Shown here piece after piece: positions 2,776-11,824 of a stretch of DNA of 11,824 nt. The DNA is from Candidatus Bathyarchaeia archaeon (GTDB lineage: Archaea > Thermoproteota > Bathyarchaeia > TCS64): assembly GCA_050014495.1 (NCBI GenBank), contig JBEKDF010000058.1, positions 1-11,824 on the forward strand. Direction: 5' to 3'. Each line of letters begins with the position of its first letter. Positions within the stretch are counted from its first letter, which is position 1. A program made the position numbers and the translations under genes. The notes beneath the pieces were generated by a model. It saw nothing but the letters and a program-made list of their open reading frames with translations, ran no database searches and was not told where the DNA came from.

Positions 2776-2820
2776 TCAACTAAGCAACTCCATAACATGC
2801 GTGCACATATAAGTAATTAT

Positions 2821-3633
2821 TGTTTTGTGGAGTATCAGTAAAACTTATAGATCAAACAGGGCACATTTCTAACCAATGGACTGGAAAGAGACCGATCAAA
2901 GGCTCATCCGGCGAGGAGAACTAATACTAGAAACACAATCACTGAAAAACCACGGAAAAGAACTCAAAAAGATGAACGAAGGCAGACCAGGACCCAGATA
3001 CAAACTCGCCAACAGCTACGTAGAGCTCCTAGCAGCAGTAAGATACCTCTACCAAATGCCCCACCGCCAACTCGAAGGCTTCACCAGAACACTCCACACA
3101 CTCGTCCCAGACCTACCACAGGCGACTACTCAGGACTCAGGAAACGCATCCTCCGACTCAACACAGACCCCTACGGGAGCCTCAGGGAATCCACCGAACC
3201 CGTCACAATCGCCGTCGACTCCAACGGAGTCAAGGTCCACAAGGCCGGGGGATGGGTGGAGCGGGTGCACGGGAAGAAGAGCCGCTACGTGAAGCTTCAC
3301 TTCGCCGTCCGCATCGACACCCATGAGGTGGTGGCGATGGAGGTCAGCACAGACGACACCCGCGCGCGCATGCGTCGGGCGGTGGAGCTGGTTAAGCGTC
3401 TCGGCTACGATGGGTGGGCTAGGCTCTCTGGTTATGGGCGGCGGTGGGCCGTGGAGACGGCTTATTCGACGTTCAAGCGGGTTTTCGGTGAGGGGTGTAT
3501 GGCGAAGACGCTGGGGAACATCGCGAGGGAGCTGGTTGGTAAGGTGGCGTTGGATAATGTGTTGATTAATGGGTGAGTGGGCTGTGGGTTTGTTGATCGG
3601 TGTTCTAACCGCTACTTGATAGTCCACGAAGCA
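2821..3633 (+). mobile_element. Defective IS5-family insertion sequence (ISH1-like group), 813 bp
   Basis: TIRs TGTTTTGTGGAGTATCA (2821-2837) and TGATAGTCCACGAAGCA (3617-3633) match at 14/17. 8-bp target duplication GTAATTAT at 2813-2820 and 3634-3641. Internal transposase remnant. Confidence 0.92.
2876..3576 (+). pseudogene. IS5-family DDE transposase pseudogene
   Basis: N-terminus MDWKETDQRLIRRGEL...RQLEGF. Frameshift at ~3119-3121, after which the frame reads GDYSGLRKRI...IAVDSNGVK...YVKLHFAV. The second-Asp (DGAYD-type) region is missing at ~3360. C-terminal GYGRRWAVETAYSTFKR is the Y-x2-R-x3-E-x6-K signature. Confidence 0.9.
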
Positions 3634-3640
3634 GTAATTA

Positions 3641-3700
3641 TTATAAATATTGTATATATTTATAAGTCACTGTTATAACAAAAATAGGTAGGTCGGTAGT
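3641..3700 (+). promoter_or_regulatory. Promoter/leader of the short Zn-ribbon-NuoE(N) gene
   Basis: Perfect inverted repeat TTATAAATAT-N5-ATATTTATAA (3641-3665) containing TTTATAA; palindrome TGTTATAACA (3671-3680); AGGTAGGTCGGTAGT (3686-3700) directly before the ATG. Confidence 0.6.
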
Positions 3701-4090
3701 ATGAGGCTAGAATGTGGTCACTGTAGCTACACTTGGGATTACAAAGGTAACCATAACTTTTGGGCTACTTGCCCTCAGTGCCGATACAAAGTTAGGATTA
3801 TCCAAAAACCAATGATAAAATCAGAGGAAAACTGGGAACCCAACGTTGAGGAAACCAATGATAAACGTGTGGTAGATGTAGTTTGGAAACTGCTACAAAA
3901 ATACAGCAACGATAAAAAATCCATCACGCAAATCTTAGCAGAGATCCAGGAAACTTACGGTTGGCTTCCACAGGAGATGATATTGGAGGTCAGCAAGCAG
4001 CTAGAGGTACCCTATGGACAGGTCTATCAGATTGCCATATTTTTGAGGGGGGAAAATAGATCAGAGGCACTGAAATCTAGTGTAAATTAG
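3701..4090 (+). CDS. Zn-ribbon (CxxC...CPxC) fused to the N-terminal helical domain of NuoE/HydC; no [2Fe-2S] domain
   Basis: CGHCSYTWDYKG...ATCPQCRYKV, a linker, then ILAEIQETYGWLPQE...LEVPYGQVYQIAIF. Paralog of 5407..6030, ending where the thioredoxin-like domain would begin. Confidence 0.85.
   Translation: MRLECGHCSYTWDYKGNHNFWATCPQCRYKVRIIQKPMIKSEENWEPNVEETNDKRVVDVVWKLLQKYSNDKKSITQILAEIQETYGWLPQEMILEVSKQLEVPYGQVYQIAIFLRGENRSEALKSSVN
3955..4030 (+). repeat. 76-bp direct repeat, copy 1 (copy 2 at 5667-5742)
   Basis: 74/76 identical; differences are 4003A/5715G and 4007G/5719A. Confidence 0.97.
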
Positions 4091-4287
4091 AAATATATTG
4101 GAGGAACGCGTGAGAAGCACGAGACTGCGGATACCTTTTAGCTTATAATGAGCAGAGTTTTAAGTATGCGCGCGCGCGTGGTAGAAAGTGAAACACTTCT
4201 GAATTGAAAAATTGTTATGGGGTGAGATCCCGCGCCATAATTTTGAGCACGCACTTACATGACCAAAAATTGTTCCTAATGAAATTT

Positions 4288-5310
4288 TTATTCTATAGTT
4301 CTTTTGTAGGCTCTGTCTATAGTTATCTCAGCGATGTCTGATACGTATTGACTTATACGTTTGATGTTCTCTTTGATGAAACTAAAATCGCTCAACGAAG
4401 TGCTTTTGTATCCGTCCACTATGGGCATCTTAATTAAATCATTGCAGAGATTATTGACAATCACTTCACGGTCAATTATCTCATTTGTAGAATCAATATT
4501 AGATGATAAAAAAGATCGGACAGCGAGATCATATGAAGCGAGAGTCATCTCTGCTGCCTTAATTAGGTTCTCCGACACGTTTATAGTTAGTTTTTCCTCA
4601 ACAGGGGTTAATCTCGCTATGATTTTCGCAATTGCGGATATATGGTCCGCTATCCTTTCGATGCTCTGAACAAGGTTCTGATAATCTAGACAGTCGAGTG
4701 GATCTAGTCTCAAGTGATTACCTAAAGAAAGATTCTGCGCACAGCTCCTGATTAGCCTCAGTAAAAAGAACATAAGTTGATCAACGTCATTCTCCAAGGG
4801 TAAGACGGATTCAGCAAGGACTTTATCTCCTACTATAAGAGCATTAATAGTGTCTCTAAACATAGAGTATGTAATGAGGTGAATTCTTTCTACACTGGAT
4901 GAAATTGAGGCCCTATCTTCATCAATTAAAGTCTCGAGTGTTATGCTGTTCGCATCAGATTTGATTATCATCATATAAAGGATATTCGATATTTGTCGAA
5001 TAGCTGCCTGCTGGTTGATGGTGAAGATTTTTTCGGATATGAGATTAATTAAGGTGTGTCCATCCATGTAAGCTCCGATTATTTTTCGCGTAATTGAAGC
5101 ATCTTTTTCATTTGTACTGATCGTTAGGGAAATGCTTCTCACATCATTCGTCATGTTTTTTGTGGGGTAAACGAAGAGTGTTCCATTGGACAAGGGTTGT
5201 AAGGAGAGCCAATCTCCTTGAGAAATATTGTTGCTTCTCAGCCAGTCCTTTGGTAAGGATACTACGAGCGATGACTGACCAAGAGCTACAATTTTACGCT
5301 GCTCCATCAT
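4288..5310 (-). CDS. phoU: Archaeal AbrB/SpoVT-PhoU family regulator
   Basis: N-terminal AbrB-like RKIVALGQSSLVVSLPKDW...ISQGD; middle RKIIGAYMDG; PhoU repeats (LENDVDQL, IERIADH, IKRISQYVSDIAE). Confidence 0.92.
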   Translation of the reverse strand: MMEQRKIVALGQSSLVVSLPKDWLRSNNISQGDWLSLQPLSNGTLFVYPTKNMTNDVRSISLTISTNEKDASITRKIIGAYMDGHTLINLISEKIFTINQQAAIRQISNILYMMIIKSDANSITLETLIDEDRASISSSVERIHLITYSMFRDTINALIVGDKVLAESVLPLENDVDQLMFFLLRLIRSCAQNLSLGNHLRLDPLDCLDYQNLVQSIERIADHISAIAKIIARLTPVEEKLTINVSENLIKAAEMTLASYDLAVRSFLSSNIDSTNEIIDREVIVNNLCNDLIKMPIVDGYKSTSLSDFSFIKENIKRISQYVSDIAEITIDRAYKRTIE

Positions 5311-5406
5311 GGTTGTATATGTACATATATATTCATTATAATGGTATTTCTGAAAAGTATATATTTTAATTTCGTAATGACTTAAAATCAGGAGGTAGGT
5401 AGGTAG
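5311..5406. promoter_or_regulatory. Divergent phoU / hydC-like promoter region with AT-rich palindromes
   Basis: Palindromes TATATGTACATATA (5316-5329) and CATTATAATG (5334-5343); BRE/TATA-like GAAAAGTATATATTT (5352-5366); GGAGGTAGGTAGGTAG before the TTG. Confidence 0.6.
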
Positions 5407-6030
5407 TTGTTACTTGAGTGTCAACACTGTGGATACATGTGGGACTATAGCGGAGAAAACAGGTTCTACGCAACTTGCCCCCAATGTAGATACAAAGTAA
5501 AGTTATCTGAAGAGGTTAGCGCGACCCCCAGATCCATTAATTCGACACCTCCGAGTGGAGGACAGAATAATCTTAAAGGGGTTGGAAAGATCGTAAGGAG
5601 AATCCTTAGCAAGTATGGGTTTGAGAAGAGATCCCTGATTCAAATCCTGCTCAATATTCAACATGATTACGGTTGGCTTCCACAGGAGATGATATTGGAG
5701 GTCAGCAAGCAGCTGGAGATACCCTATGGACAGGTCTATCAGGTAGCGACTTTCTACAAAGCATTCTCGACCTCGCCCAGGGGAAGACACCACATCAGAG
5801 TATGTAATGGTACAAGCTGCAATGTCCGAGGTTCACAGGCTGTAATTGAGGGACTGGAGAGGAGACTCGGGATAGGTGCCCTAGAGACAACTGTTGATGG
5901 AAGATTTAGCCTCGAGACCGTGAACTGCGTGGGATGCTGTGCGATGGGGCCTATGGTAGCCATAGATGGGGAATACTTCGGTAAAATGGATGTTAAGGGC
6001 CTGGATACTGTCCTGGAGAAGTTTAAGTGA
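5407..6030 (+). CDS. nuoE: HydC/NuoE-like [2Fe-2S] subunit with an extra N-terminal Zn ribbon
   Basis: CQHC...CPQC N-terminal ribbon; helical domain (GWLPQE...VYQVATFY); CNGTSC...CVGCC [2Fe-2S] motif. Confidence 0.93.
   Translation: MLLECQHCGYMWDYSGENRFYATCPQCRYKVKLSEEVSATPRSINSTPPSGGQNNLKGVGKIVRRILSKYGFEKRSLIQILLNIQHDYGWLPQEMILEVSKQLEIPYGQVYQVATFYKAFSTSPRGRHHIRVCNGTSCNVRGSQAVIEGLERRLGIGALETTVDGRFSLETVNCVGCCAMGPMVAIDGEYFGKMDVKGLDTVLEKFK
5667..5742 (+). repeat. 76-bp direct repeat, copy 2
   Basis: 74/76 identity to 3955-4030. Confidence 0.97.
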
Positions 6031-6040
6031 GGAATAGTTT

Positions 6041-7936
6041 ATGATGTCACGTGAAATAACGGGGCCGAATATGCTTGAAGAGCTTAGGAAGGAGATCCAA
6101 GAGGAATCTGTTTCTCAAAAGGTGACTATCTCGGTTTGCTCCAGTACGGGGTGCGTGGCTCTTGGGTCGCAGAGCCTCTTGAAGATGCTGAAAGAACAAC
6201 TCTCAAATCAGGGTCTAGAGGAAATTGTCGAGATCAAGGAAACCGGGTGCCTCGGCTTCTGCGAGAAAGGACCCAGGCTCACCGTTTATCCAGGAGGCAT
6301 CAGCTACTTCCAGGTTTCTCCTGAAGATATCGACGAGATTGTTACAAGGTCTTTGGAGCATGGTCAACCTCTCGAAAGGCTTCTCCTAAGAGACCCTGAG
6401 ACTGGCAAAACCGCTGAGCGATTAGAAGACATACCATTCTACAAATACCAGCGTAGGTTGCTGCTGAGCGATAATGAGAGAGTTGATCCGAAAAAAATCG
6501 AGGACTACATTTCGATTGGTGGATACTCTGCCCTGAGCAGGGTTCTATTCCATATGAAGCCAGAGCAGGTGATCCAAGAGGTCAAGAAGTCTGGTCTACG
6601 GGGTCGTGGCGGTAGCGGCTTCCCGACGGGGCGTAAGTGGGAGGCAACCAGGGATGCCCCTGGAGACCCTAAATATGTAATAGTAAACTGCGACGAAGGG
6701 GATCCCGGGTCCTTCATGGATAGATCCCTCATGGAGGGAAACCCCCACAAGGTACTAGAGGGCATGATGATAGGAGCGTACGCTATAGGTGCCTCGAAGG
6801 GGTACATATATATTAGAGAGGAGTATCCCATCGCATTCGCCAATGTGAAAACAGCCATAGCCCAGGCTAAGGAGTATGGTCTGATTGGTAGTAACGTTAT
6901 GGGGTCGGGTTTTAGCTTCGATGTAAAGGTCCACTCAGGTGCAGGAGCCTTCGTTTCTGGGGAGTCAAGCGCACTTGTTGAGGCGATTGAGGGTAGAGTC
7001 GGCGAACCGAGGCCCAAGTACATACACATATCCGAGAGGGGCATCGACGGGAAGCCAACTTGCCTGAATAACGTGAAGACATGGGCGAATGTCCCGATTA
7101 TTATTTTAAACAGCGCCGAGTGGTACAAGAGTGTTGGTACGGAGAGTAGCAGTGGCACCAACATCTTCTCCCTCGTGGGTAATGTGAATAACACCGGCCT
7201 TGTAGAGGTTCCAATGGGAATCACCCTCAGAGACATGGTCTACAAGATAGGTGGAGGCGTGCGAGGTGGTAAGCGGTTTAAAGCCGTGCAAATTGGAGGA
7301 CCCTCTGGCGGATTCATCCCGGAGCAGTTCCTAGATCTCAAGGTAGACTTCGACTCCCTATCAGAGGCAGGTTCAATGATGGGCTCAGGAGGGATGGTGG
7401 TCATGAATGAGGATGCCTGCATGGTGGACGCTGCAAAGTACTTCGTGGACTTCCTACTCGAGGAGTCCTGTGGAAAATGCATACCATGTCGCGAGGGGCT
7501 AAAGGTGCTTTCAGCCACACTCGGCAGAATATGTGAGGGAATGGGAAAACATTCCGACCTCGAGATAATTAGAGACGTGACTGAGGCAATGGAGACAACG
7601 AGTCTCTGCTCACTAGGTAAAACCGCGATCAACCCGGTATTAACTTCAATGAATTACTTCAAAGACGAATGGGAAGCACATATTGAGGAGAAAGTCTGCC
7701 CAGCTAAGCATTGTAGAGCCCTCATCGAGTACTCCATAGACGAGAAAAGTTGCAAGGCTTGTCTCCAATGTACAATGAACTGCTCCACAGCAGCTATTAG
7801 CGGGGAGAAGAGGAAACCACAAAGAATTGACCAGAGTAAATGCATAAAGTGTGGAACATGTTACGACCTCTGCCCAAGCAACGCTGTTGTGAAGATATCT
7901 AGAGGCGCGGCCAAGCAGATAGGATTGGTGGATTAA
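6041..7936 (+). CDS. nuoF: HydB/NuoF-like FMN- and NAD(P)H-binding flavoprotein (long, bifurcating-type architecture)
   Basis: N-terminal thioredoxin-like Fe-S (CSSTGC, GCLGFC); GLRGRGGSGFPTG; NCDEGDPGSFMDR; SLBB GGPSGG; CGKCIPCREG...CSLG; C...H-x5-C-x4-C site; two C-terminal CxxCxxCxxxC motifs. Confidence 0.95.
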   Translation: MMSREITGPNMLEELRKEIQEESVSQKVTISVCSSTGCVALGSQSLLKMLKEQLSNQGLEEIVEIKETGCLGFCEKGPRLTVYPGGISYFQVSPEDIDEIVTRSLEHGQPLERLLLRDPETGKTAERLEDIPFYKYQRRLLLSDNERVDPKKIEDYISIGGYSALSRVLFHMKPEQVIQEVKKSGLRGRGGSGFPTGRKWEATRDAPGDPKYVIVNCDEGDPGSFMDRSLMEGNPHKVLEGMMIGAYAIGASKGYIYIREEYPIAFANVKTAIAQAKEYGLIGSNVMGSGFSFDVKVHSGAGAFVSGESSALVEAIEGRVGEPRPKYIHISERGIDGKPTCLNNVKTWANVPIIILNSAEWYKSVGTESSSGTNIFSLVGNVNNTGLVEVPMGITLRDMVYKIGGGVRGGKRFKAVQIGGPSGGFIPEQFLDLKVDFDSLSEAGSMMGSGGMVVMNEDACMVDAAKYFVDFLLEESCGKCIPCREGLKVLSATLGRICEGMGKHSDLEIIRDVTEAMETTSLCSLGKTAINPVLTSMNYFKDEWEAHIEEKVCPAKHCRALIEYSIDEKSCKACLQCTMNCSTAAISGEKRKPQRIDQSKCIKCGTCYDLCPSNAVVKISRGAAKQIGLVD

Positions 7937-7937
7937 A

Positions 7938-8555
7938 TTGAAGACGATAGAGTTTGAGATAGACGAGAAGAAAGTGAGAGCCAGGGAAGGCATGACAATA
8001 CTTGAGGCTGCAAAGCAATCAGGTGTCAATATTCCTACACTCTGCTACCATGAGAATCTGGATCACCTCGGTTGCTGCAGAATCTGCTCGGTGTATATTG
8101 AGAAAGGGAAAAGGGGGAGTATAGTCACAGCCTGTAGCTACCCCGTTGAAGAAGGACTTAAGGTGACGACTCGTTCACAAAAGATCGATAGGTTAAGGAA
8201 GACAATAATCGAACTAGCAATCGTTGGTTCCGGCCCTAATATAAAGGCTGACCTCTATAGACTTTCTAAGGAATATAATGCAGATCTTAATCGTTTCAGC
8301 TCAATCGGGGAAGAGACCAAATATAACTGCATACTCTGTGGACTATGCACCATAAAATGCATCGAGGCTACAGGTGGAGCAATTGGCTTTGTAGGCCGGG
8401 GGGTTGACAAGAAGATAGTCTCGTTCCCCGAGACGTCGCAGACATGTATAACCTGTAACTACTGTAACAATGTGTGCCCGACTGGGAGAATATCGTTAAA
8501 GGGGGCCGACCCGCCCTTTCCAACAGTCAACGACTTTCTCTCAGGAAGAAGCTAG
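7938..8555 (+). CDS. Short HydA/NuoG/HoxU-like Fe-S subunit ([2Fe-2S] + 2x[4Fe-4S]) without a catalytic domain
   Basis: IPTLC...GCCRIC...TAC; CILCGLCTIKC; CITCNYCNNVCP. Only 205 aa, with no H-cluster or molybdopterin domain. Confidence 0.92.
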   Translation: MKTIEFEIDEKKVRAREGMTILEAAKQSGVNIPTLCYHENLDHLGCCRICSVYIEKGKRGSIVTACSYPVEEGLKVTTRSQKIDRLRKTIIELAIVGSGPNIKADLYRLSKEYNADLNRFSSIGEETKYNCILCGLCTIKCIEATGGAIGFVGRGVDKKIVSFPETSQTCITCNYCNNVCPTGRISLKGADPPFPTVNDFLSGRS

Positions 8556-8560
8556 TAGCA

Positions 8561-8565
8561 TTTTT
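8561..8565 (+). terminator. Possible oligo-T terminator of the hydCBA-like operon
   Basis: TTTTT immediately after tandem TAG TAG stops; weak signal. Confidence 0.3.
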
Positions 8566-8686
8566 CATGCAATTTACATGAGCACACGCGGCCCGAGTTA
8601 TCTCCAAAACAATTGTAACTCTTCTATGCGCGCAAATGCACACATCGTGGAGAAGCTATTTATCCCTATGGCTTGTATTGTTGTTC

Positions 8687-8744
8687 AGCCAATGATGTGA
8701 AGGCATTAGAGCGATTCGTGAGCGATCAGAGTTACACTGAGGCT
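8687..8744 (+). ncRNA. Box C/D sRNA (2'-O-methylation guide), predicted dual 23S rRNA targets
   Basis: Terminal stem AGCC/GGCT; box C ATGATGT (8692-8698); guide 8699-8710; D' GCGA (8711-8714); C' GTGAGCG (8718-8724); guide 8725-8736; box D CTGA (8737-8740). TATA-like TTTATCC at 8659-8665. Guides are complementary to GUAACUCUGA and CUAAUGCCUU, which resemble 23S H69 and H70/71 sequences. Confidence 0.88.
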
Positions 8745-8961
8745 AAACCGTAAATAACATTCAAATAGTTATTTAGCGACGCGCGCAAGCAGATAATTCT
8801 GAGTAATTCCCAACGTAAGTGAAGATACATCTATAATTCCCATACGCGAAAACTCCGTAAAATAAGAGGGTCCAGTCAATAAACGTAAATATTAAATCAA
8901 ACAACCGCGTATTTTGAGCAGTTTTAATTACTAAAATCTAAAATGGAAGGTAGATGAAGGA

Positions 8962-9933
8962 GTGATTCAGCGTAGGAGTGCCCTGACTCAGGTTCAGGCG
9001 ATCGTGATCATAATCATAGTGGTCGTCGCAGGCGTCGGAGCATACCTCCTCGGACTAATACCTGGCACGGTCTCCATACCTAGTCATGGATCATCCACGA
9101 TCCAGACTCACAGCACAACACCTCTGCCATCTTCACTATCGCTTGGAACGACGAAGACTCAGAGTTTCACGTGGGGGGGCTATAACAGAACCTACAGCAT
9201 ACACATATCACAGATCTACGATTCAAGCAAGCCGACGCCGCTGGTAATCATGCTTCATGGATTTACGGAGGACATGCTCCTCACGCAGAGCTATTTCCCA
9301 ACGGATAAATCGGATGAGGAAGGCTTCATCGTCGTTTACCCCCAGGGAATAGGACTCGGCTGGAATGTGGCGTTCGGATTCGGGGAGGCCTACAAGAATA
9401 ACATGGATGATGTGGGCTTCATACGTGAGCTCATCTACAGAACCGAACAGATTTACAGGATCGATCCAGACAGAATCTACGTTGCGGGATTCTCCGCTGG
9501 CGCGATGATGGCGTACCGTCTAGGCGCTGAGCTCTCCGATAAGATAGCTGCTATCGCCCCGGTCGCGGGTTCGATTGGGGGACACATGAATGAAACCATT
9601 GCTCCTATTCGAATAATCGACAACCCCTCACAGCCCGTATCCGTCATCGTTTTAATGGGAACGGGTGATCCGAATTACTACGGTGCAAACGCGAGCGTCT
9701 TCGGTTTTTCGTCTCTGTCAGTTCATGATTCTGTTACCTTCTGGGTGGATCATGATGGGTGTAGTAAGACCGCTCAAAACACCACCGGGAATCCAGTTAA
9801 AAGTGTCTACTCCAACGGCTTGAAGGGCACTGAGGTCGTCTTATACACGTTTATTGGTGGGGATCACGAGTGGCCAAGCAATGCTGCTGATGTTATCTGG
9901 GACTTCTTTAAGAGCCACCCCAAGCGGCACTAA
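8962..9933 (+). CDS. Membrane-anchored/secreted alpha/beta-hydrolase, PHB depolymerase (LpqC)-like esterase
   Basis: Hydrophobic N-terminal helix, S/T/P linker, PLVIMLHG, FIVVYPQG, DDVGFI, IDPDRIYVAGFSAGA nucleophile elbow, GTGD, GGDHEWP. Confidence 0.9.
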   Translation: MIQRRSALTQVQAIVIIIIVVVAGVGAYLLGLIPGTVSIPSHGSSTIQTHSTTPLPSSLSLGTTKTQSFTWGGYNRTYSIHISQIYDSSKPTPLVIMLHGFTEDMLLTQSYFPTDKSDEEGFIVVYPQGIGLGWNVAFGFGEAYKNNMDDVGFIRELIYRTEQIYRIDPDRIYVAGFSAGAMMAYRLGAELSDKIAAIAPVAGSIGGHMNETIAPIRIIDNPSQPVSVIVLMGTGDPNYYGANASVFGFSSLSVHDSVTFWVDHDGCSKTAQNTTGNPVKSVYSNGLKGTEVVLYTFIGGDHEWPSNAADVIWDFFKSHPKRH

Positions 9934-9989
9934 TGCTCGCGCGACGTACAGGAGAGCTGCGAAATTATCTTCCACCGCGCGCGCATTAG
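9930..9989. repeat. Inverted repeat between convergent genes
   Basis: CTAATGCTCGCGCG (9930-9943) and CGCGCGCGCATTAG (9976-9989) are 13/14 complementary with a 32-nt spacer. Confidence 0.7.
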
Positions 9990-10013
9990 CAAAAGTGAGT
10001 TTATGCGTGCATG

Positions 10014-10421
10014 TTAAACAACCAATATGGCTAGTACAATGATTTCAGCTAGAAGGATTGCTCCGCATAGGATAGATATGAAAGGTCTTTCCTGCTTGCT
10101 TGGATTTACATCGTCAACTAGTTCCATACGTCTTTTAGTCGGTACTACCAATATGCTTCTACTACGAACAATTGTTGAATTATTTTCATCATTATTGTTC
10201 CATCTCAAACGTGGGTTATTGGAATATGCACCAATAAATCCATAGAGGAAGAGGAGCCCTGACTCTAAAAAAGTGATGTCGCCAATAATTCCTGTAATAT
10301 TGTTTATCTCGATTCTCCCGAAATAAGCATTAGATAGAATTAAACTGAGGACAATATTTATTATGCCAATGCCTAAGGCTAAACGAATTGATTTTATTAT
10401 TATACTCCGATTAATAGACAA
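10014..10421 (-). CDS. Hypothetical membrane protein (about 3 TM helices)
   Basis: Hydrophobic segments (LALGIGIINIVLSLIL; ITFLESGLLFLYGFIG; FISILCGAILLAEIIVLAILVV); AT-rich; TTG start. Confidence 0.7.
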   Translation of the reverse strand: MSINRSIIIKSIRLALGIGIINIVLSLILSNAYFGRIEINNITGIIGDITFLESGLLFLYGFIGAYSNNPRLRWNNNDENNSTIVRSRSILVVPTKRRMELVDDVNPSKQERPFISILCGAILLAEIIVLAILVV

Positions 10422-10586
10422 GTGTTACTGAATTGTGCAACGCTCTATTTAGGAGGTTCGCTGTGTGTGCATAACTTAAATTTCATAAACACATAAGGCC
10501 AAGGTGCAAAACTAAACGCGCGCGCATGGCATAATCGATCTACAGACCGTTGATGTTTTAATATGCACATGGCTCAGTGAATTGGA

Positions 10587-10616
10587 GCTGACAACAGTCA
10601 GCGACTCTGTGAGGAG
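10587..10616 (+). promoter_or_regulatory. Short inverted repeat and Shine-Dalgarno upstream of the amidohydrolase
   Basis: GCTGAC-AACA-GTCAGC (10587-10602); GAGGAG (10611-10616); TATA-like TTTTAATAT at 10556-10564. Confidence 0.45.
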
Positions 10617-10622
10617 AAACGA

Positions 10623-11606
10623 ATGAAGGTCATCGACGTCCATAATCACTTGAACCCGCGCCCATTCCTAGAGGCAGTTCGAACCGGTCATGATTGGTAC
10701 GGGTTCACCGCCGAGCACGGCGAGCTTGAGAACCCCCGGAACCACTGGACGCTGAAAGAGCGGATCGCCGACATGAACCGGCTTGGAGTGGATATGCAGG
10801 CACTCACCCTCTATGGCGACTTCAACAAATACGACCGTGACCCAAAGCTCACTAAGGCAGCTGTCAGGGCCTGCAACGACGAGGTAGCGGCCATGGTCGA
10901 TGAGTACCCAGATCGGTTCGTGGGCCTGGGCATTCTTCCCATGCAGGACGTAGCGGCATCGGTAGTTGAGCTCGAGCGGGCGGTAACCGATCTCGGGCTA
11001 AAAGGCGTCACCATCAAGGACCATATCAACGGATACACCCTAGACGATCCGCAGTTCCTCCCCTTCTGGGAGGCCGTCGAGCGGCTGGGAGCCGTCGTCG
11101 AGTTCCACCAGGGCAGCACGATCGTGGCGCAGCGGATCCCTCGTTACTTCCTCGAGAACACCGTGGGCAACCTGGTGGAGCGAGTCCTCACCTTTGGTGC
11201 TCTGGTGCAGGGTGGGATCATCGATCGCTTCCCCAAGCTGAAGGTCTGTCTGCTTCACGGGGGCGGCTATGTGGCTTTCGGGGTCGCCCGAATGGACAAG
11301 GGCTGGGAGGCAGCGAAGCTGGACTACATGGTCAAGTACTCGGCTGAGGAATCCCGCCAGTCGATCTCCAAGCCTCCGAGCCAGTACGTTGGGAATTTCT
11401 ATTACGACTGTGCCACCTTCAGCGAACCGACTCTCCGATTCCTGATAGACACTGTGGGGATCGATAGGGTCGTATTCGGGACAGACTACCCCTGCCCTAT
11501 GGAGATGGTGGACTCGGTTAACTGGATCAACAGTCTGGGGAGCCTGACCTGCTCGGAGAAGCAGGCGATTTTGTCGGTGAACCCGGCCCGGATGTTCGGT
11601 ATCTGA
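10623..11606 (+). CDS. Amidohydrolase_2 family, ACMSD-like metal-dependent decarboxylase/hydratase
   Basis: IDVHNH, NDEVA...PDRFVGLG.LPMQD, ELERAV, PFWEA, FHQG, LHGGG, YYDC, FGTDYP, NPARMF. Confidence 0.93.
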   Translation: MKVIDVHNHLNPRPFLEAVRTGHDWYGFTAEHGELENPRNHWTLKERIADMNRLGVDMQALTLYGDFNKYDRDPKLTKAAVRACNDEVAAMVDEYPDRFVGLGILPMQDVAASVVELERAVTDLGLKGVTIKDHINGYTLDDPQFLPFWEAVERLGAVVEFHQGSTIVAQRIPRYFLENTVGNLVERVLTFGALVQGGIIDRFPKLKVCLLHGGGYVAFGVARMDKGWEAAKLDYMVKYSAEESRQSISKPPSQYVGNFYYDCATFSEPTLRFLIDTVGIDRVVFGTDYPCPMEMVDSVNWINSLGSLTCSEKQAILSVNPARMFGI

Positions 11607-11712
11607 CCCTTCAACTAACTCACCGGGGTCATAGTCTTATCCACACACACCCAAACCCACAACTGGTAGGTTTCAGTATGCGCAACAATCTATGCATTAA
11701 TACGCGCGCGCT

Positions 11713-11824
11713 GGCTTGTCCCTAAAATGGTTAAAAATGGTCATAATCCCCCTCACCGAATTTGGGGGCAATCCCGGGCATATCCCAAACCCCTCACCTT
11801 CTCGTAGAACCCATCCCCTTCAAC
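11713..11824 (-). mobile_element. Possible right end of another IS element extending beyond the window
   Basis: TIR-like GGCTTGTCCCTAAAATGG followed by strongly C/A-skewed DNA, i.e. G/T-rich on the minus strand like the right half of the IS at 2821-3633. A minus-strand frame ends ...GLGYARDCPQIR*. The partner end is not visible. Confidence 0.3.

Follow-up and report, generated by a model that had tools for sequence, protein, structure and literature searches.

The stretch analysed here, called the window throughout, is contig C58 (11,824 nucleotides) of the genome G000, a 3.1-Mb assembly of a Candidatus Bathyarchaeia archaeon in 92 contigs. It carries thyX, thiI, hsp20, a broken IS5 element, a nuoE-like fragment, phoU, a hoxEFU-like cluster, an esterase gene, an orphan open reading frame (ORF) and an amidohydrolase gene. 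Its ThiI is 62-84% identical to Candidatus Bathyarchaeota proteins (4 of the 5 loci compared), and peat metagenomes are the main place where its DNA turns up. Scattered along it are short runs of strictly alternating C and G (CG runs), which are the subject of this work. An earlier interpretation made from the letters of the window, the sequence-only reading, had listed eight pure runs and two impure variants; all 8 were found where it had placed them, and both variants (2796-2806 and 10002-10013) read as it had described them (Table 1). It had also held that runs of at least 9 nt should occur less than once per window by chance, and this stood: five were seen, against 0.03 expected and a maximum of 1 in 200 order-2 Markov simulations. 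The shorter runs it had reported are present, but with 8 runs of at least 6 nt against 2.4 expected, the three of 6-7 nt are individually at chance level. Its statement that all runs lie in AT-rich spacers had to be given up, as the run at 3361 sits inside a transposase remnant of 65% GC.

Genome-wide, the enrichment persisted after Markov correction: GCGCGCGCG is found 213 times in G000, against 6.7 (order 2) or 22 (order 4) expected. Alternating CG runs of at least 8 nt number 459. For lengths of 7, 8, 9, 10 and 11 nt the counts are 186, 192, 144, 111 and 5, a plateau followed by a cliff after 10, whereas the AT, AC, GT, AG and CT alternations of the same genome decay geometrically and show no such cliff. 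The tetramers GCGC and CGCG occur about as often as expected (0.99 and 1.04). Among 1662 intergenic 8-mers composed of G and C only, 733 are the two alternating words, and poly-G is not in excess. Impure purine-pyrimidine tracts are in excess as well (1163 versus about 490 in shuffled sequence), and 10-mers with one mismatch differ mostly by transitions (104 versus 34). According to a simple gene caller of our own (3097 genes), 59 of the 459 runs fall in called ORFs (87% outside) and 13 (3%) deep in long genes, in a genome that is 83% coding; intact genes and gene starts are free of runs. The runs are clustered in accessory contigs, with 0 to 12 per 10 kb, and are denser in convergent spacers (1.1 versus 0.7 per kb). 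A 3′ gene end lies within 30 nt of 20% of 400 intergenic runs, versus 13% of random points in the same spacers. Beyond 2 nt, the flanks of the runs are random.

The runs were compared with parent sequences, that is, paralogs or relatives 71-100% identical. With runs of 7 nt or more (645 in all), 333 flanks had a paralog, and homology was lost within 4 nt of the run in 170 of these. In a stricter test of 918 run ends (459 runs), a paralog reached the run in 82 cases, 59 of them not flagged as ends of insertion sequences (IS). At 50 of these 59 ends, the run takes 0 to 3 bases from the parent (0, 1, 2 and 3 bases in 16, 24, 9 and 1 cases), several at 96-100% identity; by inspection, the remaining 9 include 4 missed IS ends and 2 belonging to one duplication. 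Conversely, a run of 6 nt or more was present at 52 of 682 paralog alignment ends, versus 34 of 2675 control points.

Joints for which a parent could be aligned on both sides were examined in two passes, over 663 and 693 runs. All 13 distinct non-coding joints are deletions of 44-3945 nt replaced by a run, one of them in G021 and one being the run at 3361 in the window (180 nt). At the latter, the region 3344-3372 holds 27 letters in the window versus 198 in an intact paralog from the public run X3, and the T at 3371, which differs from the relatives, may be part of the filler. None of the 13 joints was a pure insertion or carried a +4 footprint, and GCGCGC was found in the deleted part of the parent at none of the 11 joints of the second pass. 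The other two-sided matches were 8 same-length coding matches and 1 poor alignment; C9:85303, considered as a 7-nt replacement, proved to be synonymous coding variation and was dropped. In G016, one joint of an inversion carries a 12-nt filler.

The bases at the edge of the run follow a pattern. At 81 ends from G000 and G016 loci, the first G after a parental T is new (parental in 8 of 28), while otherwise the first G is parental in 18 of 21 and the first C in 18 of 23, the next base being new. At least one base is common to run end and parent at 43 of 59 ends, versus 25 in shuffles, and T-ended joints share none. The ATG prefix, which the sequence-only reading took for a common feature, is a minority genome-wide (159 of 896 run ends) and mostly parental (10 of 12 at −1, 8 of 12 at −2). 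Two of its other proposals fared better: that the runs bound accessory DNA, and that they could be scars of a repair process, in agreement with the paralog and two-sided tests, where they are new at breakpoints and come from neither parent.

Among relatives of the family, 22 of 24 genomes contain the CG 9-mer (a few at chance level), which is found almost nowhere else among 40 relatives except in G039. Over the whole class, 65 of 221 genomes have any match, most of them few, in an on/off pattern. One genus of another class includes genomes with 42, 26, 10, 1 and 1 matches and five with 0. The same length peak at 8-10 recurs in other families and in another class. Flanks differ between lineages: A before and T after the run in G093, G176, G195, G103, G086, G068, G236 and G264, T before and A after in G222, G122 and G039, and mixed flanks in G000. 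For G021, G039, G093, G176, G195, G222, G103, G236, G264, G068 and G086, the regions were chosen around known matches, which inflates densities, and only length profiles and flanks were used. The matches in G262 (61% GC, no cliff at 10) and G020 are probably due to chance, and neither genome was scored as positive. That the trait comes and goes within a genus hints at an accessory gene or element. Two side observations belong here. Within the genus of G000 (49% GC), G001 and G010 have only 33-36% GC in the stretches read (56% in G015) and are almost without runs. In distant genomes, runs adjoin tRNA ends or fragments (L213:8516, L223:14563, L059:7258), as expected at decayed integration islands.

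We regard it as probable that the runs are sequence derived from neither parent, placed at the joints of deletions and rearrangements, and likely written in the course of end joining of broken, resected ends. In such a mechanism, each broken and resected 3′ end would gain a short dG/dC tail. As (CG)n is self-complementary, any two tailed ends could pair, and both tails would then grow, by repeated slippage and with each serving as template for the other, until some 10 GC pairs hold; the joint would then be filled in and ligated. The cliff at 10 bp could instead result from later trimming of longer runs. The scars would persist in dispensable DNA, age by transitions, and later become targets for IS5/IS1182-like elements, whose end would be targeted in turn by IS110.

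Several observations count against this interpretation. The parents are not true ancestral alleles, only 9% of the run ends could be tested against one, and no strain lacking a run or an IS copy was found among metagenome contigs for the window and C33. Most paralog end pairs (451 of 548) are free of runs, the G016 inversion carries no filler at its second joint, and in the A-flanked lineages the parent test gave only 4 one-sided cases. The search for an enzyme adds to this list, as no gene was tied to the trait among the candidates tested. G039 (100% complete, with the same signature), G021, G022 and G023 lack Ku and LigD polymerase, which the run-poor G001, G010 and G018 possess. PolX is missing from G039, and its catalytic aspartates are intact in run-rich and run-free genomes alike; PolB2 is also missing from G039, and PolB copies do not track the trait. 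Neither reverse transcriptase (RT) nor DinB turned up in any of the 5 genomes searched for them. A second, divergent primase-family protein (G000 C20:26047-27366, 439 aa) is full-length in only 5 of 41 genomes. PriS is present in 38 of 41 genomes, with and without runs (the search covered PriS, not PriL or PriX), and PriSL, being universal, cannot alone explain the patchy spread. Ligases do not track the trait, and nucleotidyltransferases were examined as candidates, with no pattern judged. Comparison of G000 proteins with the run-rich loci of 13 distant genomes, which amount to a few percent of those genomes, yielded no polymerase-like candidate.

The most serious alternative concerns the IS5/IS1182-like family, which has GCGC ends or targets: an element would insert, delete neighbouring DNA and be lost, leaving 6+4 = 10 letters. 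A GCGCGC target with a 4-bp duplication gives exactly 10 (starting with G), so that footprints have to be taken seriously. The element has clear inverted repeats, and a 4-bp CGCG duplication fits most complete elements, though not L133, L136 and G144; no unoccupied target site was seen. A related complete copy scores below both family cut-offs (94.7 bits against 270 for IS1182, 84 against 140 for IS5_4), and the window copy has no ORF in view. In G000, 60 of the 67 ends of such elements carry a CG run of 5-10, and the outer flanks of IS ends also join truncated parents. One complete element sits inside a 420-nt deletion, and among the 14 complete elements flanked by a run on either side, 3 imply a target of 11-12 nt, above the prediction from the free pool. 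In the AT-rich G001, the two longest runs are found only at IS ends. We called a genome run-rich when its A/T-flanked exact 10-mers, added up by hand over the two phases, came to at least ten (19 of the 221 genomes of the class); the transposase is enriched among these genomes (10 of 19, versus 34 of 202), which also speaks against the end-joining interpretation. Gapped or fragmented assemblies may moreover hide IS copies (the G021 and G068 scaffolds have N gaps), and the search covered homologs of this transposase only.

We nevertheless consider this explanation unlikely. A footprint predicts a seed in the parent and no deletion, and none of the 13 two-sided joints is of this kind. A transposase homolog (E≤1e-15) is missing in 9 of the 19 run-rich genomes, including the richest outside the genus of G000, while 20 of the 44 transposase carriers have at most 1 flanked 10-mer, and in run-poor carriers the IS flanks are only 4-8 long. 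The lengths of IS flanks (6, 7, 8, 9 and 10 nt in 32, 22, 27, 11 and 5 cases) fit, by a hand estimate, insertion into an existing pool of runs. The element at the right end of the window, which abuts a run, belongs near IS5/IS1182-like elements and miniature inverted-repeat transposable elements; such elements account for about 60 run ends of G000, not for the bare junction runs. The family probably uses the runs as targets once scars exist. Two side observations concern the same family. In three genomes (G000 C48 near 7090 and C17 near 58775; L025 and L032, in G012 and G016), an IS110-family element (259 bits, NCBIfam) has its insertion point exactly at the CAG that ends the IS5/IS1182-like element, one transposon thus targeting the end of another. 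The inverted repeats of the IS5/IS1182-like element also bound a non-autonomous element of G000 (C79:7072-7551 and C48), in which a small Lrs14-like winged-helix gene with a cysteine-rich tail takes the place of the transposase.

The filler might also be captured or copied, from a (CG)4-5 oligonucleotide or from an existing run serving as ectopic template, and joined through 1-2 G/C bases. The bases shared by run ends and parents (43 of 59 ends) agree with this, the cliff at 10 would follow from a fixed donor, runs are in places separated by fragments of 50-170 nt that form chains, and in some lineages the flanks hardly vary from A-(GC)n-T or T-(GC)n-A. We judge it improbable all the same: the first G after a parental T is not templated, flanks are random past 2 nt, and no donor element or RT was found.

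Less credible still is the proposal that the runs are selected functional sites, whether as Z-DNA that absorbs supercoiling where genes end or as sites bound by a chromatin protein or a methyltransferase. Their intergenic location (87%), their density in convergent spacers and their mild preference for 3′ ends go in that direction. Yet runs occur inside dead transposases and at truncation points, and their absence from the parents already goes most of the way to refuting the proposal; the positions of the runs are not conserved, they cluster in accessory contigs, and they are patchy even within one genus. The 3′ bias is also expected from purifying selection on promoters. Z-DNA at gene ends, as put forward by the sequence-only reading, agrees poorly with so slight a bias and with runs that stop at 10 bp, and gyrase A was not found in 5 of 5 genomes searched (the control matched in 12 of 14). 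Its suggestion of a HIP1-like motif or binding site fared no better, since runs are absent from intact parents and do not stand at shared positions in the hsp20 spacer of relatives. All three proposals need conserved, pre-existing positions, whereas the runs are new at joints and unconserved; they are thus not supported. Finally, an assembly or library artefact can be practically dismissed: every genome here was assembled from metagenomes, assemblers can stumble over palindromic repeats, and the comparison was between contigs (all from peat or wetland), not raw reads, but contigs of four other public runs (X3, X5, X8, X10; two runs flagged as possible sources excluded) cross the window runs with no differing letter, further runs agree on C33, and the CG runs are excluded from genes, aged by transitions, flanked in lineage-specific ways and absent from most genomes of the class.

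How does the proposed end joining relate to known systems? Prokaryotic non-homologous end joining (NHEJ), with Ku, LigD polymerase, ligase and phosphoesterase, joins non-homologous ends with deletion and occasionally adds bases, usually few and not in fixed alternation. The corresponding operon is rare in archaea. It is complete in G000 (C3:64206-67463), and 14 of the 17 other members of the genus have it too, but it does not track the trait across 41 genomes; in the open-access literature we found no paper on NHEJ and LigD in Bathyarchaeia. The N-addition of terminal deoxynucleotidyl transferase (TdT) and the templated insertions of Pol theta also bring new sequence to repair junctions, with 1-2 nt of microhomology. 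That sequence is random or copied from the flanks, whereas one dinucleotide repeat is found at all sites here, and PolX is not required. HIP1 of cyanobacteria is an abundant short palindrome, a fixed word that is common inside genes and paired with a methyltransferase. The CG runs, in contrast, have no fixed length, lie mostly outside genes (3% are deep in long ones) and arise anew at joints. DRT3 (PMC13174585, PMC13314766) and DRT7 (10.64898/2026.04.18.719102) are reported to make defined simple repeats without a nucleic acid template. Their product is long, free defence DNA (GT/AC or A/T) and not chromosomal joints; no RT was found here.

The closest likeness is with PriSL of Saccharolobus. 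According to PMC12019639 and PMC3333859, this primase adds bases to ends, anneals strands via 2-4 GC pairs and repairs breaks with C/G-biased insertions; about 85% of the indels are of 1-2 bp, and its polymerization across discontinuous templates (PADT) works best on dC runs. This microhomology-mediated end joining (pp-MMEJ) would share with the CG runs a Ku-independent joining, terminal transfer followed by annealing through 2-4 GC pairs, and insertions in a C/G context. It differs in that the fillers here are 6-10 nt long, strictly alternating, self-complementary and capped, follow deletions of 44-3945 nt and are patchy among lineages, a comparison that covers the runs and not small indels. 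That its reported insertions are of 1-2 nt and do not alternate counts against our interpretation. If the runs are scars of end joining, a primase-type polymerase such as PriSL would be our favoured, though tentative, candidate for writing them. We also entertain, as a speculation that may well prove wrong, a mobile end-joining enzyme in Thermoproteota that writes strictly alternating dG-dC tails with a 10-bp ruler, making all ends mutually cohesive, which would explain the on/off pattern within a genus and a transposon family specialised on the scars.

Coordinates within the window are collected in Table 1. The runs at 4168..4178 and 9976..9984 are likely junction scars, the former by inference, as no parent sequence was found for its joint, and the latter by extension of the genome-wide pattern. 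Immediately right of the run at 10517..10525, matches to the amidohydrolase locus of relatives start at 10526 for G002 and at 10537 for five others. An intact-length copy of the broken IS5 element is present on C37.

Table 1. CG runs and associated features of the window.
Position	Strand	Feature	Basis
2796..2806		Impure purine-pyrimidine alternation at left edge of accessory block; likely aged or impure scar	Relatives; transition bias
2821..3633	+	Broken IS5-family element with 8-bp AT-rich target duplication (2813-2820, 3634-3641), no CG flank	Sequence; Pfam and NCBIfam IS5 matches
3361..3369		CG filler at internal deletion of about 180 nt in IS5-family transposase remnant	Paralog comparison; first C parental
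4168..4178		11-nt CG run between nuoE/hoxE-like fragment and phoU-like gene	phoU gene missing at this place in G016
8628..8633		6-nt CG run near right edge of 5.9-kb accessory block (hsp20 to conserved non-coding element)	Chance-level by length alone
8780..8786		7-nt CG run just beyond conserved non-coding element, at end of synteny with relatives	Relatives' loci
9938..9943		6-nt CG run 5 nt after esterase stop codon; may be chance	Run scan
9976..9984		9-nt CG run on one side of 135-aa AT-rich orphan ORF (10014-10421, minus strand)	Run scan
10002..10013		Impure purine-pyrimidine alternation at stop of orphan ORF; likely aged or impure scar	Sequence
10517..10525		9-nt CG run on other side of orphan ORF	Relatives' amidohydrolase-locus homology begins at 10526-10537
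11703..11711		9-nt CG run, outer flank and likely terminal C of multicopy IS5/IS1182-like element	Copy comparison
11712..11824	+	Terminal inverted repeat and first 113 nt of IS5/IS1182-like element; contig ends inside	Identical ends on C13 and C29

Most genomes of the genus share, at 84-97% identity, a non-coding element (8688-8748 in the window) that usually comes right after hsp20. In relatives, this conserved element (about 8690-8750) often lies within a few hundred bases after hsp20, so that the interval 2780-8640 of the window (about 5.9 kb) is an accessory block. The element has motifs that we take to be C/D-box-like and is likely a box C/D guide RNA; Rfam gave no match for it, and nothing credible anywhere in the window. 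Within the block, a zinc-ribbon plus NuoE-like gene is partly duplicated (3701-4090 and 5407-6030), a 76-nt stretch being 97% identical between the copies, and G016 has the same zinc-ribbon/NuoE-like pair without the phoU gene in between. On many G000 contigs, an intergenic motif starting with GTGAGGATAAGGCTAT, possibly a cassette-type repeat, recurs between small accessory genes, often truncated at a CG run.

The repair of double-strand breaks without Ku, as in most archaea, is to our knowledge still to be explained. The CG runs are likely a variant of end joining with junction filler, apparently undescribed: we found no description of such a CG-run filler in the open-access literature. A scar marked by its sequence makes repair events countable in the genomes of uncultured organisms, and as a trait it can be scored in hundreds of genomes in search of the enzyme. 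If the runs are scars, one expects a polymerase that uses a self-complementary dinucleotide to make sticky ends of universal fit; this reading would also explain the target choice of a whole IS family, and would mark the boundaries of accessory DNA.

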